Assembly (NCBI GenBank): GCA_021498095.1
Contig: JAIZWK010000001.1
Location: forward strand, 3,480,001 to 3,512,000
DNA: 32,000 nucleotides
Source: Candidatus Harpocratesius repetitus
GTDB taxonomy: Archaea; Asgardarchaeota; Lokiarchaeia; Sigyniarchaeales; Promethearchaeaceae
Direction: 5' to 3'
Each line of letters opens with the position of its first letter. Position 1 is the stretch's first letter. Positions 11,763 to 30,905 of the stretch are shown here, piece after piece. Position numbers and translations under genes: made by a program. The notes under the pieces were generated by a model. That model was given only the letters and a program-made list of their open reading frames with translations, ran no database searches and was not told the origin of the DNA.

Positions 11763-11940
11763 AGATGAATTTTACAATTTGAATACTCCTTTTTTTTATT
11801 CCATCTTCTTAATTTTCATTTAATTTATGTATTTGAAGAATTATATCTGTTAAAGCGAATACAAAGTTTTCTTTTTAGATAAGCATCTTCTTTTGGATAT
11901 TTTCCATAAAGTTTTTATCACATTATAAATTCGAATTTAT

Positions 11941-12333
11941 ATGGTAGGTCGCCCTTTAAAGCCCCAAACCAAGATCTTTCGAGATTTTGAGATAGAAACA
12001 CCTTCTGGTGATATAAAAACGCTTAAAGAAATACTAATCTGCTGTCCAATTTGCCATTCTTCTCACGTTGGAAATCATGGAACACGAAAGCGAGGAAATA
12101 CCCGAGTTCAAATTTATCAATGTAAAAATCCGAATTGTGCTTTTCTGAAACACGCAAACCAAGGGAAGCAGTTTACGATTTATAGCAGTCTGATGGTAAA
12201 TTCGATCGTAAATCATTATCTCCATGAAATTTTAGCGAAATTATTTAAATCTGAAGGAAAACTGATTAATATTAGGAAAAACTACTCTCTTTCACCCAGT
12301 TTAATGTCTTATTTGAATAAAAAGACATTGTGA
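11941..12333 (+). mobile_element. Truncated IS1-like (InsA-type zinc ribbon) transposase
   Basis: CPICHSSHVGNHG...VQIYQCKNPNC...KQF. No DDE domain follows. 11764-12085 is repeated at 25844-26177. Confidence 0.7.
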
Positions 12334-23490: not shown

Positions 23491-23619
23491 ATCTGAAATT
23501 TATACTTAATTTTTTATCAATCTTTTTTTAAATAAGATATCTTTAAATTTCTTATATATGGGAATTACTTGTAATATGAAAATATTATAATAAAAAATGT
23601 ATATATAATAATATTTGAT

Positions 23620-24786
23620 GTGATTAGATTGAAAAAAGGTGAAATTGCGTATATTAACCCAGAACTGTTAAAATATGCAAGAATTGAAATCGGATTGTCA
23701 ATTGAAGAAGCATCGAAAAATATCGTTACTAAAAATAAATTAAATGCAGCAGAACTAGGTAAGGATCATTTAACCTTTAACAAATTGATAAAAATCTCAA
23801 ATCGATATAAACTTCCAATAACTTTTTTCTATTTGAACAAACCATACACAGATTCGCTCATAACTCAATTTCGTTCTATAAAATCTAGAGAAGTTAGATT
23901 GACTCCAGAACTTAGGAAAAGCTTTTATGATATAAACTTAAAGAGAAATCTCGCAATCGAGTTTAAAAAATACGATTTGAATGAATATAATTATGAATAT
24001 GTCAATTCAATTGAATTGCAAACCCCAATAAAACAAGTTGCAGAAGAAATCAGACATTTATTGCACTTCAAAGAACCTGTTGTTGATTGGAAGGATGATT
24101 ATCAAGCCCTCAACAATTGGATAAAAGCGATGGAAGATTTAGGAATTTTGGTTTTCCAAATATCAAAAATTCCTGTTAATATTGTTAGAGGTTTTTCGAT
24201 TTCAAAAACACCATATCCTACTATTGTAATTAATAGAGCAGATCGACCATTTGGAAGAATATATTCTATTGTCCATGAATTTGTCCATATTATATCAATT
24301 GATAATAAAGAAAATATATTCTATTCTGAAAATAATGAATTTAATAATAAATCTAAAGGGAATATTGAAGCATTTTGTAATAAAGTTGCAGCAGAAGTTT
24401 TAATGCCAGAAACAGAGTTTATTCATCAAGCATATAAAATATTAAAGCAATCTGAAAATACTTGGAACAAAAAGAATATAAAAAAAATAAGTAAGCATTT
24501 TTGGGTTAGTCAAGAAGCCATTTTAATTAGACTGAAGACTTTTTCTTTAATTAACAAAAAAGAATTTGATTTTCAAATGAAAAGATTAAACAAGAATGTT
24601 CATGGTTCTGGATTTGAAAATAAACAACATATGAAGGTAATTAGAACTAACTCTTATCATTTCCTTAATAATCTACTTAATGCTTATGCAGAAAGAGAAA
24701 TAACTGCTTCAAAATTATCTAAAATATTACAGATGAAACTTATTCATTTGGATGCTTTAGAAAAAGAGTTTTGGAAGAATAAATAA
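23620..24786 (+). CDS. Xre-HTH + ImmA/IrrE (Peptidase M78) metallopeptidase
   Basis: N-terminal HTH (LKYARIEIGLSIEEAS), SIVHEFVH (HExxH), EAFCNKVAAEVLMP and VSQEAILIRL. Confidence 0.92.
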   Translation: MIRLKKGEIAYINPELLKYARIEIGLSIEEASKNIVTKNKLNAAELGKDHLTFNKLIKISNRYKLPITFFYLNKPYTDSLITQFRSIKSREVRLTPELRKSFYDINLKRNLAIEFKKYDLNEYNYEYVNSIELQTPIKQVAEEIRHLLHFKEPVVDWKDDYQALNNWIKAMEDLGILVFQISKIPVNIVRGFSISKTPYPTIVINRADRPFGRIYSIVHEFVHIISIDNKENIFYSENNEFNNKSKGNIEAFCNKVAAEVLMPETEFIHQAYKILKQSENTWNKKNIKKISKHFWVSQEAILIRLKTFSLINKKEFDFQMKRLNKNVHGSGFENKQHMKVIRTNSYHFLNNLLNAYAEREITASKLSKILQMKLIHLDALEKEFWKNK

Positions 24787-25307
24787 TGCATGATTTAGAT
24801 CAACTTTTATCCACTAATTCAAAGACGAAAAAGAGAAGAACCTAATTTTCATTCGATACAAGTGCATTTATAGATTCATGGAGAAGATACTATCCTAAAG
24901 ATCTCTTTCCTCGTCTCTGGGATTTTATTACTGAAAAAATAAAGAATAAAACAATTATAGCGAGTAGCATAGTAAAGATAGAATTAAAAGCCCAAAATGA
25001 CGATTTAACAGAATATATTGATCAATTCAATAATTTATTTGTTGAACCAGATGAAAGAGTACAAAATATAGTGAAGCGTCTAATAAATAATCCAAATTTC
25101 AACAAGTGGGGAATAGATCATTCACATCAGGCAGACCCATTTGTTGTTTCTTTAGCGAAAGTGAAGAATCTGAAAGTAGTAAGTTATGAAAATCCAAGAA
25201 AAGAGAAAAATAGCATTCCAGCAGCTTGTCAATTATTAAATGTTGAGCATTTATCTTTTATCGATTTTTTGAGAGAAGAATCCTTTCAAACTTTTATTGA
25301 CAATTAA
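24786..25307 (+). pseudogene. DUF4411-type PIN nuclease with a premature TAA at 24843-24845
   Basis: ATG overlaps the upstream stop. Reads MHDLDQLLSTNSKTKKRRT*FSFDTSAFIDSWRRYYP..LFP.LW...ADPFVVSLAK...VVSYE...IPAAC, in frame with the tracked ORF 25071..25307. Confidence 0.85.
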
Positions 25308-25323
25308 AAAAATAAAGAAAAAT

Positions 25324-25776
25324 TCAAACATCCTGCACTAAAATCGTTGCTTTTCCTTCCGTTACAATTATACCATTTTGATTTTTAACAATAGTCTCTA
25401 AAATCAATAACTTCATGGGAGGTTTTCCTTCACGCTCTTTAACTTTTTTCTCGATTACTGTAGCGATCGCAGTCAATTCATCTCCAATATACACCGGTTT
25501 TCGAAATTTGCAGTATTGATCCAAATAAAGTGCTCCTGGTCCGGGTAACTTCATGCCAATTACTGCACTAATAAGTCCTGAAGAAAATGCCCCATGAACT
25601 AAACGTTTCTTAAAAATCGTTTTTGCAGCAAATTCGTCATTAAAATGCAGCGGATTATAATCAGTGGTCAATTTCCCAAATTGTTCCACCGTTTCATTGG
25701 AGGTTTTTACTGTTATTTGTGCTGTATCTCCAACGTTAAATTCATCAAATGATTTTATATGAATTTCTTGTGTCAT
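25324..25776 (-). CDS. MaoC/PhaJ-family (R)-specific enoyl-CoA hydratase/dehydratase
   Basis: F..LTTDYNPLHFNDEFA...F.KRLVHG and F..PVYIGD. Confidence 0.9.
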   Translation of the reverse strand: MTQEIHIKSFDEFNVGDTAQITVKTSNETVEQFGKLTTDYNPLHFNDEFAAKTIFKKRLVHGAFSSGLISAVIGMKLPGPGALYLDQYCKFRKPVYIGDELTAIATVIEKKVKEREGKPPMKLLILETIVKNQNGIIVTEGKATILVQDV

Positions 25777-25843
25777 AATTAAATCCCCATTATTTCATAA
25801 GCGGGGAAAATTCTTAATAAATTCTTCTATATTTCTAATTTTC

Positions 25844-26177
25844 GATGAATTTCAAAATTCAATGACCAATTTGGATACTACTTTTTTTTATTCCATCTTC
25901 TCAATATTCTTTTTATTTGTGTATTTGAAGGATATCTCCTTCTAAAGCGAAGATAAAGTTGTTCTTCTACATAAGATTCTTTTTTTGGATATTTTTCACA
26001 AAGTTTTTATCACACTAAAAATTCGAATTTATATGGTAGGACGCCCTCGAAAGCCCCAAACCAAGATCTTTCGAGATTTTGAGATAGAAACACCTTCTGG
26101 TGATATAAAAATGCTTAAAGAAATACTAATCTGCTGTCCAAATTTCCATTCTTCTCACGTTTGAAATCATGGAACAC
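25844..26177 (+). mobile_element. Second, more decayed copy of the IS1-like element end
   Basis: Homologous to 11764-12085. The ORF from ATG 26033 stops at TGA 26162-26164 after 43 codons. Confidence 0.8.
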
Positions 26178-26584
26178 CATTAGAAATAATGAGATATCAT
26201 TAAAAGCAGGCACAAAAAAAGAGTTTAAAACCATTTCTCCATCAAATAATGGATTTTCACCAGTTTTTTCAATATATTTTGATGCATTTTCACAAATTTA
26301 ATAATAAGCTTTTTCATGAAAGATGAGATTTCAGGATTTTTTGGATTTTTATATTTGTCAATTATCTTTAAACCTTTCATATATTCATACTTACGATTGT
26401 TACCATATAATAATTATCTTCAGAAATATAATTGTGTCGCCTTAATATCTTGAACTACATAATAACAAGCTCCAACACTAAGAATATTAGCGAATAATGA
26501 TCAAGTTTTTGTTGGTTCTCTTAATTTTTTTGACATTTTTTCTCATCACCATTATCTTATGAAATTTCTATTCACAAAAATTGT

Positions 26585-27385
26585 TTAATCTTCAATAATT
26601 TTTGAAATTAAAATTCTAGCATCATAATTTTTCACGAGATTATGTAAATTCATTATTATTTCATCTCTTTTCGAATTTGTGGGAGAAAAATGGCTTAAAG
26701 GAATAATTAGTAATTTTCCATCTTTGTGTTGTATTAAATTTGATTTAAGAGAAGTAATTTTTGTTGTTATTTGGCTTGAATTTTGGTAATATTTTAAATT
26801 ATCTTTACCAAATACTTTAACAAGATATTTCCAAGCTAATCCACCAAAAGAAATAATTATTTTTGGGTTACAAAGTTCTATTTCTTTCTTTAATATTGCA
26901 AGATGCATATTTTTGTCTGGATCTTTTTTATATCTAAATTTATAGGCATCAGTAAAAATAAAATCGTTCAATAATTGCTTGTTGATATATTTTAAATAAG
27001 ATTCAATTGATTTAATAGGATACTCCTTTGGAATTATTCCTAGTTCCCAAAATTTATGGAAAATGTTGCGTAAATATGGATTACCTGTAGCCAGCCAAGA
27101 TCGAAGACTATTTTGATTTGTTTTCACAAAATCTAAGGCTGATTTAGCTGTTCCCATTCGTTTCCATTCTTCATATTTTTGCTTTTCAAGTTCAACTTCA
27201 TATGAATAAATATTACCTTTTCCAGGATTTGCCATTATAATCATCCTACTAGGTTTTATTGAAGATATATAATAACCAAATGGACAAATAGGAATTTTGT
27301 TAAGATTCCAATCATTCACAAAACATTTTTCAATACTTTTTAATCTTGAAATCTGTCGTATAATATCTAACAATTCGGGATGCAT
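26585..27385 (-). CDS. Uracil-DNA-glycosylase-fold protein of unknown specificity
   Basis: IIMANPG, FIFTDAYK, EIELCNPKIIISFG..A and IIPLSHFS follow the UDG-superfamily motif order. Confidence 0.7.
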   Translation of the reverse strand: MHPELLDIIRQISRLKSIEKCFVNDWNLNKIPICPFGYYISSIKPSRMIIMANPGKGNIYSYEVELEKQKYEEWKRMGTAKSALDFVKTNQNSLRSWLATGNPYLRNIFHKFWELGIIPKEYPIKSIESYLKYINKQLLNDFIFTDAYKFRYKKDPDKNMHLAILKKEIELCNPKIIISFGGLAWKYLVKVFGKDNLKYYQNSSQITTKITSLKSNLIQHKDGKLLIIPLSHFSPTNSKRDEIIMNLHNLVKNYDARILISKIIED

Positions 27386-27624
27386 TTTCCATCAATTTTG
27401 TTAATATTTTATAAATTTCAAGCTAACTTAACGCTTTAACCTTTCCTTTTAGTAGTAAGAAAGCGTTTTGAAGATTAAAATATTCTGTTCTTTTTTCCTT
27501 ACCTATGATATGTTTTTTTATTATTTAAATAAGAACACCACTTCAAAATCTCATAAAAAAGCCTTCAAACCACCTCCATACCGAAAAGACCCTGTACAAC
27601 CTCACACTTCATAGATTATACGAA

Positions 27625-27786
27625 TTAATCAACAAACATTTCTTGGATAGTTTTTTTTATTTGGTCGATGGTTTTTATTATTTCTAAAGTGCCAAATTTC
27701 TTGATAAATCTCCTTCTATCCACTGTTCGTGTTTGATCTAGCACAATCCATTCTGCTTTACCTGCAAAATTTAGTTTTACCCTTGA
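27625..27786 (-). pseudogene. PemK/MazF toxin, C-terminal remnant
   Basis: Manual translation SRVKLNFAGKAEWIVLDQTRTVDRRRFIKKFGTLEIIKTIDQIKKTIQEMFVD* (LDQxRTVD..R motif). No start codon. Confidence 0.85.
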
Positions 27787-27834
27787 TCACAGAAATATTG
27801 ATTGTTAGAAATTAAAAAATAATCCAATTTTTAC

Positions 27835-29427
27835 TTAAACTCCATTTATTATTTTTTTTTCCATCATATGCTGAATTTCTTCAATATTTTCTTTGATTCT
27901 TTGTTTCACTTCTCTCAGAGTCAACTGTTTCTTTTTATTTTTTACAAGATTTATTAACTGACTCATTTGAGATGCCATCTTAATTGGAATTTCAAATTTT
28001 GCTAAATCATTCTTAATCACATAATGCAATTCATCTATTGTTGTTGCTGCATCAACCATTTCATGGATTATCAGAAAACGCGAATCAATTTTGGCCAAAT
28101 CGTATCTCTTTTCCAGATCTTCAATAGTTGACTTCTTATTTTCTCGAGGATTGGATTCGATCAAGACCTCTGTAAATTTGTCCCATGTCTGATCTTGCTT
28201 TAAAGTACTTCTCTTTAGAATTAGTTTATGTTTCGCTTCTATATGCTGATTTAAATCCTCAGGGAGGCGGAAGCTTTTATGACAGTATGGACATTTTACA
28301 TTTTTTCCAGAACCGTGTTTTCTTGCTTTTTGATGTTGCTCAAGAGCAGACTGAGAATTAAATGATCTATCACATGATTGACAATTAAAGGATCTTTCAA
28401 GATTTAATGAAGTTTCAATGAAATGATTCTTTTTTTCTTGATGATCTTGTAATGAATGCTTCTTTCTAAATTCTTTTTCACAAATTGGGCATTTCCATTC
28501 CTTTTTTCCTTCATTTGATTTGCTAATTACTTTTTTTTCTTCTTCTGCTTTCTTATTTATTTTTTCTATATCCTCCGCAATATTTGACTTAATTTGGACT
28601 TCTTGATTTGTTTCTTCAGAGATTTTACATTGTTCTGGTTTTGAAAGCAATATTTTATGGAGTAGAGATGAAAAATCATGATTTGTTTGGATATCCAATC
28701 TTAACATTTTTATGATTTTTTCATAATTTGAATCCATTTTGACAAATGCATTGGAAAATTGCTCTAAATTTTCGAGATATGGTTGATTATTTATTAATTT
28801 CTGGCATATTTTTTTATAACGTTGAATTTTCTGTTTGAGTTCTTTATTTTTTTGGGAAATTGTTGCCCATTTCGATGAAAATTCAAGTTTTAGTGATTTT
28901 AATTCTTTGTTCACAGAATCAATCTGATTTTCACTCTCTTTTTTCAATTTTATAATTTTATTTTCTAAAGACTGTTTTTCTTTCCTTAAATCTTCATTTT
29001 CTTTTTTCATTTGATTTATTATTTTATATTGAGCCTTTTTCACATTATCATAGGCTTGAAATTGTTGCTTTGTCTCAATTGCGGATATCCATGACATAGG
29101 AACTCGGATATGAGACGGTTTAAGTTCATTCTCCACAATAAAAGCAGTTCTACCTAATTTTTTATACTTACGATCATCCGTTTTCTCAAATTTTGCCGAA
29201 CGATAGAGAAAATACCCCATACTTTGCATTTTATATACAAAATCATCAGATTCGATCTTTTTTTTGAAAAATTGACCTTTGTGATATCCATAAATAATGA
29301 TTAGAACATTAATATGTTTTTGAGAATAAAAATTGCGCAAATCCTGCAAGATTACATCAAATGCCGATTGATATTTGCTTAAGAGGTGTAAATCCGTTTC
29401 GATATAATTGATATCTTTTTTTGCCAT
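27835..29427 (-). CDS. Smr-like domain + coiled coil + three C2H2 zinc fingers
   Basis: N-terminus ETDLH...LIIIYGYHKG. Fingers: CPICEKEF...L..HQEKKNH, CQSCDRSF...L..HQKARKH and CPYCHKSF...L..HIEAKH (28228-28491). Confidence 0.75.
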   Translation of the reverse strand: MAKKDINYIETDLHLLSKYQSAFDVILQDLRNFYSQKHINVLIIIYGYHKGQFFKKKIESDDFVYKMQSMGYFLYRSAKFEKTDDRKYKKLGRTAFIVENELKPSHIRVPMSWISAIETKQQFQAYDNVKKAQYKIINQMKKENEDLRKEKQSLENKIIKLKKESENQIDSVNKELKSLKLEFSSKWATISQKNKELKQKIQRYKKICQKLINNQPYLENLEQFSNAFVKMDSNYEKIIKMLRLDIQTNHDFSSLLHKILLSKPEQCKISEETNQEVQIKSNIAEDIEKINKKAEEEKKVISKSNEGKKEWKCPICEKEFRKKHSLQDHQEKKNHFIETSLNLERSFNCQSCDRSFNSQSALEQHQKARKHGSGKNVKCPYCHKSFRLPEDLNQHIEAKHKLILKRSTLKQDQTWDKFTEVLIESNPRENKKSTIEDLEKRYDLAKIDSRFLIIHEMVDAATTIDELHYVIKNDLAKFEIPIKMASQMSQLINLVKNKKKQLTLREVKQRIKENIEEIQHMMEKKIINGV

Positions 29428-29605
29428 TTTTCTCTGTAGGTAAAAATTTCTTTTTTGTTTTATTTATTAAATTTTATGTGTATCTAATTAGTGATACATC
29501 CTAATATAGATTCCACTTGGAATTCCAGTTAAATATCTAATTGGAATGTGCACGATTAGGGTCTTATTCTGTACAATATTATATATATTCTTATATTGTT
29601 AAATA

Positions 29606-30082
29606 TTATTTCTGTTTTTTAGTTAATACCAGTTTCAGCTGTTCGAGGTCTTCTTCTTCTAATTTCAAAATCGAATTGAATACGTGTTCTTTTCCATTTT
29701 TTTCTAAAAAATCCATAAATTTCTCAACAGAAAAGTGTGATTTTCCTGTCACACTCAAGTAATAATCTTCGATTATTTTTTGTTTTGGTAGATCACAGAG
29801 CCAATATAATAATACAAACAAAATTCCTGATCGATCGGTTCCTCCAACACAGTAAATTAAAAGAGGAGTTTGTGTATGAAGAATTAATTGAATAACTTGC
29901 CTATATGCTTCACTTTTTTGCTTGATTGTTTCTACATAATCTTCTGCAATTGAAATTAGGATATGGATATACTGAAAATCCGGAATAAATTCTTGAACAT
30001 GGGGGATATTATAAGAATTTTCAGTAACTTCTGAAGATTTTCGTAATCGCAAATCTTTTTTTGTCGAACTCGATTTTTTCAA
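29606..30082 (-). CDS. Tyrosine-protein phosphatase-like (CX5R), N-terminus short or degenerate
   Basis: PLLIYCVGGTDRSG resembles PxLxHCxxGKDRTG; also I..DY..S. The start is a TTG and the expected N-terminal segment is not in frame. Confidence 0.72.
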   Translation of the reverse strand: MKKSSSTKKDLRLRKSSEVTENSYNIPHVQEFIPDFQYIHILISIAEDYVETIKQKSEAYRQVIQLILHTQTPLLIYCVGGTDRSGILFVLLYWLCDLPKQKIIEDYYLSVTGKSHFSVEKFMDFLEKNGKEHVFNSILKLEEEDLEQLKLVLTKKQK

Positions 30083-30347
30083 AGAATTTGTTAAATATTT
30101 ATCATCATGTTTATAAATTCTTCAATTTGAAGTCGATTCTATTAAAATTATTGATTTTCATACCTTGAATTTGGTACGTTGATAAAATCGACAAAAAATA
30201 AGGAAGGATATTTTAGATTTGAGTCGGGAGAATTAAGATGATGAAATGAAAAAATTCGAATCTTTGAAATTTAAAATACCCTCAATTCTTTTTATGATTT
30301 TCTCATTCTTATTAAGTTAAATCATCAAATCTTAACACAACTATGGC

Positions 30348-30905
30348 TTATTTCATATTTTCTAATTCACGCTCAATGGCTAACGCTTGTTCATAACATT
30401 TTCGCGCTACTTGCATGAACATTTCCTCAACATTCGTCCCATCCTTTGCAGAAGTCTCCAAATGAACTGCATTCAACCGATCCGCCAAATCTAATGCATC
30501 ATCCCGTGATACACGCCGTTGCTCATCAGCTAAATCTACTTTGTTTCCTATCAGCACTAATGGTATATCTCCTGCAGCTTTTTTGAGGGTACTTATCCAC
30601 CCTGGAAGTCGCAATAAAGACTCGGGTGTTGTGATATCATATACGCCGATAGCTGCTTGTGAACCCTTAAAATATATATTTCGCATACTTGAGAATTGAG
30701 CTTGTCCTCCTATATCCCAAAGCATGAGCCGTATATCATTTCCATCAATTTCTACGTCTTTGATAAGAAAATTGGTTCCGATAGTTTGTTTAAGGTCACT
30801 TGAAAATGTTTGTTTAATGAATCTAAAGATTAAGCTGGTTTTTCCAACATTCTGGCTACCAAATAGTGGTACTTTAAATTTATACTGTTTTCGTGGAGTC
30901 GACAT
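30348..30905 (-). CDS. Rab-like small GTPase (Ras superfamily)
   Basis: GSQNVGKTS, TIGTNF, WDIGGQ, GNKVD and ETSAK. No C-terminal cysteine. Confidence 0.95.
   Translation of the reverse strand: MSTPRKQYKFKVPLFGSQNVGKTSLIFRFIKQTFSSDLKQTIGTNFLIKDVEIDGNDIRLMLWDIGGQAQFSSMRNIYFKGSQAAIGVYDITTPESLLRLPGWISTLKKAAGDIPLVLIGNKVDLADEQRRVSRDDALDLADRLNAVHLETSAKDGTNVEEMFMQVARKCYEQALAIERELENMK

Follow-up and report, generated by a model that had tools for sequence, protein, structure and literature searches.

Few rescue and repair modules are common to bacteria and eukaryotes; the Smr nucleases belong to these, and among the archaea they are seldom met with except in the Asgard lineage and Thermoplasmatota. 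Catalysis by SmrB and Cue2, two active Smr nucleases, is tied to the DxH motif (10.1101/2021.08.16.456513, PMC10897456), and the known Smr domains that are documented as nuclease-inactive have lost this motif (PMC10897456). All three Smr subfamilies nick DNA in vitro with a preference for branched DNA; His-701 of the HGxG motif matters for DNA nicking by MutS2 of T. thermophilus, and the eukaryotic family-2 Smr domain, in which the His of loop 3 is replaced by Thr, is still active as an endonuclease (PMC3200294). The C2H2 zinc fingers, on the other side, are a eukaryotic hallmark and are poorly characterised in archaea. The present analysis concerns a gene of the Asgard archaeon Candidatus Harpocratesius repetitus, denoted P0001 like its product, in a stretch of 32,000 nucleotides (assembly GCA_021498095.1, contig JAIZWK010000001.1, positions 3,480,001 to 3,512,000; hereafter the window), in which both kinds of domain are joined. 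P0001 shows a known nuclease family in a new architecture, with a divergent Smr domain at the N-terminus, a long helix modelled as a coiled coil and three C2H2 fingers, and a literature search found no paper describing archaeal Smr-C2H2 fusions.

With SmrB and Cue2/N4BP2, P0001 shares the Smr fold and the DxH motif, but it carries no N-terminal ribosome hook, CUE or PNK domain and has a Tyr in loop 3. Its Smr domain is N-terminal, starting at residue 5 and thus leaving no N-terminal extension, and is followed by the coiled coil and the fingers; its gene is strain-specific and not conserved. The 25 best of the 39 Pfam families matched by P0001 at E <= 10 include no CUE and no known collision-sensor recruitment domain. 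The Smr domain of MutS2 (T. thermophilus 2zqe, B. subtilis) is the best structural match of the head and the best profile match of its Smr family, and MutS2 is dimeric, as is modelled for P0001; however, P0001 is devoid of the MutS core, ATPase and KOW domains, and displays DLH and YGxxxG in place of the DLR and HGxG of MutS2.

The window had earlier been read from its letters alone (the first-pass annotation), and the open reading frame (ORF) proposed there at 27835-29427 is borne out as a single minus-strand frame of 530 amino acids with an ATG start. The frame is uninterrupted over 530 codons in host DNA of ~29% G+C; since DNA of this composition is rich in chance stops, it is not a chance ORF. 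The product is rich in Lys, Ile and Glu, and its 90%-identity cluster is a singleton (1 member). The sequencing runs listed as containing the gene include no RNA run, and the only one that contains it in full probably comes from the source sample. For P0001, Pfam PF27771.1 is recorded in the protein database; this accession is absent from the Pfam release searched.

The N-terminal domain of P0001 is a divergent Smr domain, as evident from a chain of profile comparisons. An exhaustive HMMER search of residues 1-125 against 1.84 billion representative proteins recovered just two relatives. In P0002 (182 aa) the Smr-like domain is followed by a disordered tail, and in P0003 (664 aa) by a long coiled coil and a tail of unrelated sequence. 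The three head domains were combined into a profile (A1), which matched standalone ORFs of ~85 aa in 51 of the 161 genomes of the class, with E values down to 4.5e-12. In the 33-sequence family alignment (A2), 30 members match Pfam Smr, the three failing being P0001 together with P0002 and P0003, which likewise fall below Pfam Smr detection. The standalone paralogue of the same genome, P0004, scores 26.2 bits with Pfam Smr against a cut-off of 25.7, and BLASTP aligns P0001 to P0004 with a pairwise E of 8e-7. The profile of this mini-Smr family has the MutS2 Smr domain as its top match in the PDB (E 0.0048). The profile-level homology to Pfam-positive Smr proteins, the Smr fold and the intact DxH thus uphold the Smr-like N-domain of the first-pass annotation.

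Other searches with the head were without yield: phmmer of residues 1-130 against the PDB gave choline kinase as its best match (E 0.087), the A1 profile found only cathepsin K there (E > 0.5), and a scan of metagenome contigs with A1 found no relative. ORFs of 402-410 aa and 866 aa, weakly matched by A1, were discarded as spurious, having no match to the family profile. The maximum-likelihood tree groups P0001 with P0002 and P0003 (support 98/99), apart from the mini-Smr proteins, and the three are distinguished by an insertion before the last strand and by C-terminal extensions. The DLH, (I/V)HGY..G, S60, F63 and G71 positions are shared with the mini-Smr proteins such as P0004; those are, however, ~85 aa long and widespread, whereas the three larger proteins constitute a separate long-branch clade. 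On its 18-kb metagenome contig (L009), P0003 is accompanied, among others, by an AAA_11/AAA_12 helicase, a 1167-aa FGE-sulfatase-domain protein and a TPR protein, as well as by proteins of 1036 aa (metallo-beta-lactamase/beta-CASP) and 210 aa (zf-C2H2_jaz).

The AlphaFold2 model of the head built from A1 (pLDDT 70; E6-12, H19-31, E39-46, H52-69, E73-76, E92-99) displays the beta-alpha-beta-alpha-beta-beta order common to all three Smr subfamilies. When compared with PDB representatives, its first match is the MutS2 Smr domain (2zqe_A, Z 7.4, rmsd 2.6, 77/80 residues), and further Smr matches are human N4BP2 (3fau, Z 6.3; 2vkc, Z 5.5), YdaL (3qd7, Z 6.0) and SmrB on the disome (7qgr_v, Z 5.1); Smr domains make up 5 of the top 17 fold matches. 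Z scores below 8 are moderate and the TusA, Alba and IF3-C folds score nearby, so the fold result counts only jointly with the sequence chain. A Foldseek search of the head against the PDB gave no match at E <= 0.001, with methyltransferases ranked first and IF3-C at rank 8, and an ESM Atlas search matched a Smr cluster with a TM of 0.68 by the hit. The N-terminal DLH...IIxGYHxG pattern noted at first pass is present as T-D-L-H-L-L at residues 11-16 and I-I-I-Y-G-Y-H-K-G at residues 43-51. The glycines of loop 3 are kept, and the loop is longer, as it is throughout the archaeal family.

A coiled coil of ~100 aa had also been claimed, and it is recovered as one continuous helix over residues 119-213 in AlphaFold2 (pLDDT 76-91). 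In the model of two copies of residues 116-232, the helices pair in parallel and in register, with contacts spaced 3-4 residues apart, the ipSAE being 0.53 as compared to 0.00 for the best control, with a run agreement of at least 87% and a partner pLDDT of at least 81. Of 30 solved homo-pairs, 21 reach the ipSAE mark, as against 0 of 23 single chains, and as the coiled coil is a well-represented fold, the pass of the dimer may partly reflect likeness. The modelling supports a putative dimerisation of P0001 via the coiled coil. The full-length AlphaFold2 model, made without an alignment, is poor (pLDDT 51) and was relied on for the long helix only.

All three zinc fingers fit the pattern C-x2-C-x3-F-x5-L-x2-H-x4/5-H exactly, with the 12 zinc ligands intact, and Pfam zf-C2H2 matches whole P0001 in three stretches (E 7e-13, 48.6 bits against a cut-off of 25.2), in agreement with the three fingers, two of them with a 5-residue His spacing, described at first pass. 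The JAZ/matrin likeness suggested there stands for the second finger only. Finger 2 alone scores 31.5 bits with zf-C2H2_jaz and 31.3 with zf-met, both above cut-off, as compared to 25.7 with zf-C2H2, and finger 1 is just above the zf-C2H2 cut-off, scores 26.0 bits with B129_C2H2-zf and lies below the cut-offs of the JAZ-type models (jaz 18.9, zf-met 17.2 bits). Finger 3 alone has no match to zf-C2H2_jaz (PF12171) or zf-met (PF12874) and is classical. Like the JAZ/U1-like/matrin fingers that bind double-stranded RNA (dsRNA), finger 2 passes both models and fingers 1 and 2 share H-x5-H, whereas finger 1 lies below cut-off, finger 3 is classical and the linkers are short, with 13 residues between fingers 1 and 2 and 7 between fingers 2 and 3. 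JAZ-type arrays have long linkers between their fingers, and three C2H2 fingers would read only about 9 bp. The strongest C2H2 matches of the 4.36-Mb genome belong to P0001, with one other locus reaching E <= 0.01; a jaz scan of the genome at 0.1 likewise finds one other locus, and P0001 is the sole clear tandem array of the genome.

The region beyond the fingers has no Pfam match, no credible relative in the 161 genomes of the class and no similarity to the tail of P0003, and an ESM Atlas feature search found nothing for residues 1-125 or 405-530. No full-length homologue of P0001 was found in 40 related genomes, although the finger region alone finds matches elsewhere.

The standalone relatives are far more widespread. 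P0004, a Smr domain of ~85 aa (G000:C1:4045787-4046032; L010:1495-1743), belongs to a family (loci L012-L040) with the consensus DLHG...IIHGY..G..LKNY.RS..F...M...GF.L......NPG.S.F, which is concentrated in the order of the window and occurs in 11 of the 13 other genomes searched of the same archaeal family and in 35-39 of 135 genomes of a sister family, with few members elsewhere in the phylum. Both same-genus genomes hold the P0004 orthologue only, and the standalone genes have no conserved gene neighbours. The mini-Smr family is a candidate minimal archaeal Smr factor and, in the form of P0004, a better candidate than P0001 for a housekeeping Smr function. P0004 and A2 also bear a weak likeness to Bax1, an archaeal endonuclease, over its C-terminal part, both in the PDB (6p4o_B, residues 413-463, E 0.071) and through NCBIfam NF053695 (positions 384-445, E 0.0026); judged by sequence, Bax1 could end in a Smr-like module, or the likeness could be due to chance.

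Joining of Smr to a zinc module has occurred more than once in these archaea. C2H2-Smr fusions are found at three loci (L023, L028, L037): a 241-aa ORF of genome G050 (L023) combines two fingers with Smr, both above Pfam cut-offs, and genomes G122 and G074 encode one finger with Smr. In the metagenomic proteins P0006-P0010 one or two fingers directly precede the Smr domain, and the best model for the finger of P0007 is again jaz (32.9 bits). P0007-P0010 (325-365 aa) consist of a conserved N-region of ~75 aa, a Lys-rich helical linker, 1-2 C2H2 fingers and Smr. A helix-turn-helix likeness of their N-region, noted by eye, is not significant (best PDB profile match, the DesR helix-turn-helix, E 0.27). 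P0001 and these fusions (L023, P0006-P0010) hold the same two domain types in one polypeptide, but theirs run from fingers to Smr without a coiled coil, whereas P0001 runs from Smr to fingers, with a stalk of ~200 residues between the two. In five genomes Smr is instead followed by a C-terminal CxxC...CxxC (Cys4) zinc ribbon in proteins of 123-155 aa, and these loci (L057, L058, L059, L061, L064; G107, G081, G142, G015) form one well-supported clade. Smr and zinc-module fusions fall in at least two separate clades of the tree, and the finger fusions occupy two or more positions distinct from that of P0001.

The reader fingers, the DxH-positive head, the doubling by the coiled coil and the recurrent pairing of Smr with zinc modules together suggest that P0001 is a finger-targeted nuclease, and its strain-specific site among decayed toxin-antitoxin genes, with no orthologues, suggests an accessory, conflict-type role. 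The preferred reading is therefore that of a homodimeric accessory finger-targeted nuclease, to which we assign a probability of about 0.45, that is, somewhat below even odds. We infer that one end of the parallel coiled coil (~90 residues) would carry the two divergent DxH-positive Smr heads, and that the three fingers (one JAZ-type, two classical) and the orphan helical tail at the other end would bind a nucleic-acid target, which the heads would cut or nick nearby. P0001 would then be restricted to its lineage and be carried as a passenger by an accessory segment, peculiar to the strain, of the conflict-gene kind (defence, toxin-like or mobile-element). As to the substrate, opinion is nearly balanced, with a slight lean towards structured or dsRNA over DNA: the chemistry of DxH and the jaz type of finger 2 speak for RNA, whereas classical finger 3, its linker of canonical length and the nicking of DNA by Smr domains in vitro speak for DNA.

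The coordinates of the domains of P0001 and of the surrounding features are collected in Table 1.

Table 1. Features of the P0001 gene, its product and its surroundings, in positions of the window
Feature	Residues	Positions	Strand	Remarks
P0001 gene		27835..29427	minus	530 codons and stop, ATG start
Divergent Smr domain	5-103	29119..29415	minus	beta-alpha-beta-alpha-beta-beta
DxH motif	D12-L13-H14	29386..29394	minus	H14 invariant in A2 (33 sequences)
Loop-3 motif	Y46-G47-Y48-H49-K50-G51	29275..29292	minus	HGxG equivalent
~95-residue helix	119-213	28789..29073	minus	modelled parallel homodimeric coiled coil
Helical linker	214-312	28492..28788	minus	no family match; helices predicted at low confidence
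C2H2 finger 1	313-335	28423..28491	minus	H-x5-H; zf-C2H2 25.4 bits
C2H2 finger 2	349-371	28315..28383	minus	H-x5-H; JAZ/zf-met type
C2H2 finger 3	379-400	28228..28293	minus	H-x4-H; classical, zf-C2H2 28.2 bits
Orphan helical C-terminal region	401-530	27838..28227	minus	low-confidence helices
Accessory segment, 4.6 kb		25777..30347		absent at the syntenic site in both same-genus genomes
MaoC-dehydratase gene		25324-25776		flank of the segment
Ras-like GTPase gene		30348-30905		flank of the segment
UDG-superfamily gene		26585..27385	minus	Pfam UDG 35.5 bits; on the 4.6-kb segment
MazF/PemK toxin remnant		27628..27786	minus	directly downstream of the P0001 stop codon
Tyrosine-phosphatase-family ORF		29606..30082	minus	N-terminally truncated; abuts the 242-bp repeat
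Interspersed repeat, ~242 bp		30046..30290		right edge of the 4.6-kb segment

The gene lies on an accessory segment between two genes which, in the same-genus genomes (G002:C80 and G001:C317), are only ~160 bp apart. One of the two, the Ras-like GTPase gene, is in keeping with the Asgard, Loki-type affiliation of the genome. The first-pass annotation had regarded confinement of the architecture to a few mobile loci, with no RNA or ribosome binding, as evidence against its proposal, and the finding of the architecture on a strain-specific segment of one genome goes half-way towards that. Neither an integrase nor direct or inverted terminal repeats nor a target-site duplication was found around the segment, and Rfam and tRNA scans of the window from 20 to 32 kb found nothing. 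The toxin remnant next to P0001 is the C-terminal half of a MazF protein (PemK_toxin 27.8 bits, profile positions 57-109 of 109) with stops upstream in frame and no evident antitoxin, and it represents a decayed toxin-antitoxin remnant. The phosphatase ORF covers only positions 103-203 of 240 of the Y_phosphatase3 profile, and the 242-bp repeat, starting at 30046 within the first codons of this ORF, apparently truncates the gene. This repeat has at least 40 copies in the genome at 88-99% identity, occurs also in G002 and has no Rfam match. A second repeat of ~310 bp lies at 25867-26177 and 11775-12085, its copies in the window being 89% identical; many copies occur in G002, one of which (G002:C139) directly adjoins a copy of the 242-bp repeat. 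The viral-contig search found no viral relative of the UDG-superfamily neighbour. Beyond the segment, at 23500-25320, an Xre-HTH/Peptidase_M78 gene matches the RmrA models of PADLOC (E 2.8e-17). With the DUF4411 fragment beside it, this gene makes up a RosmerTA-like module, which is a further insertion peculiar to the strain and is missing between the same flanks in G001 and G002.

Several observations weigh against P0001 being a finger-targeted nuclease with a role in conflict. The Smr assignment made at first pass stands at the level of profile kinship but not as a direct match, as hmmscan of residues 1-130 against Pfam at E <= 10 gave no match to Smr (PF01713). The Smr branch of P0001 is ~3x longer than those of P0002 and P0003, at 2.37 against 0.8-0.9 changes per column, and its loop-3 column, which is His in 32 of the 33 sequences of A2, is Tyr (Y46) in P0001 alone; on this residue change, the head could be a binding module instead of an enzyme, which is a caution and not a verdict. 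Both closest relatives are devoid of fingers, so the link between fingers and nuclease in P0001 rests on one sequence. PADLOC at E <= 0.01 gave no defence family for P0001 or P0003, NCBIfam gave no match for P0001, and no partner gene, target or immunity gene could be discerned. The genes beside it on the segment are in decay, and the P0001 gene may thus itself be in the course of being lost.

The caution of Y46 leads to the reading, unlikely in our estimation, of a non-catalytic nucleic-acid binder or scaffold, for example a transcription regulator or chromatin tether, with the head as a binding module like that of B. subtilis MutS2 or SmrA. The long terminal branch, the unique His-to-Tyr change, the documented nuclease-inactive Smr domains, and a classical finger 3 whose 7-residue linker resembles those of DNA-binding arrays are consistent with it, but the DxH lost from the known inactive domains is kept in P0001, and the eukaryotic family-2 domains remain endonucleases without the loop-3 His. 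A ribosome quality-control or RNA-surveillance factor, which the first-pass annotation had proposed, would have its head dock collided ribosomes and cut the mRNA, its dimer bridge two ribosomes and its fingers hold rRNA in the manner of Rei1/ZNF622. The Smr/IF3-C-like fold, with IF3 C-domains also among the matches, the intact DxH, the zf-C2H2_jaz/zf-met character of finger 2 and the action of all well-studied DxH-positive Smr proteins at collided ribosomes speak for such a factor. It is nevertheless distinctly unlikely, and a core role of this kind is not sustained: the architecture occurs in one genome, the gene and its segment are absent at the syntenic site in both same-genus genomes, P0004, present in both of these, is the better housekeeping candidate, no CUE or known recruitment domain was found, and the short linkers differ from the long ones of JAZ arrays. 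The second option of the first-pass annotation, a nucleic-acid-sensing or conflict nuclease, would fit P0001 better than ribosome quality control does.

The segment itself has raised two further explanations, both very unlikely. P0001 might be a site-specific DNA-nicking or homing-type endonuclease, its fingers recognising a DNA site for the Smr heads to nick, that helps the 4.6-kb segment to spread or persist, as suggested by the nicking of DNA, preferably branched, by all three Smr subfamilies, by the segment being an insertion relative to the same-genus genomes and by the helix-turn-helix appearance of the N-region of P0007-P0010. This appearance is, however, not significant, the segment shows no hallmark of transposition or integration of the kinds sought, and the reach of three fingers is short for such a task. 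Alternatively, P0001 might be a functionless chimeric ORF that arose when a decaying segment recombined and that has so far stayed intact. The truncated neighbours (the MazF half and the phosphatase fragment), the singleton protein, its orphan tail and its long Smr branch point that way, but a stop-free frame of 530 codons at ~29% G+C would soon be lost in the absence of selection, the twelve zinc ligands and the DxH are intact, and the coiled coil keeps heptad-like contacts.

If P0001 is a finger-targeted nuclease, it may also be one instance of a wider trend. We propose tentatively, and with more doubt than confidence, that the archaeal order has repeatedly evolved zinc-module-guided Smr nucleases (C2H2-Smr, Smr-zinc-ribbon and Smr-coiled-coil-3xC2H2), in which the finger would read an RNA duplex or DNA site and Smr would cut; P0001 would be the most elaborate of these, two-headed, with its heads ~13 nm from the reading head, and employed in genetic conflict. 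P0001 alone is of limited value, being a singleton on an accessory segment, and the broader lead is the mini-Smr family of ~85 aa together with its zinc-module fusions. The repeated joining of Smr and C2H2 offers a tractable route to what archaeal C2H2 fingers bind, and the Smr-C2H2 family lets one ask whether finger-guided cleavage arose naturally.

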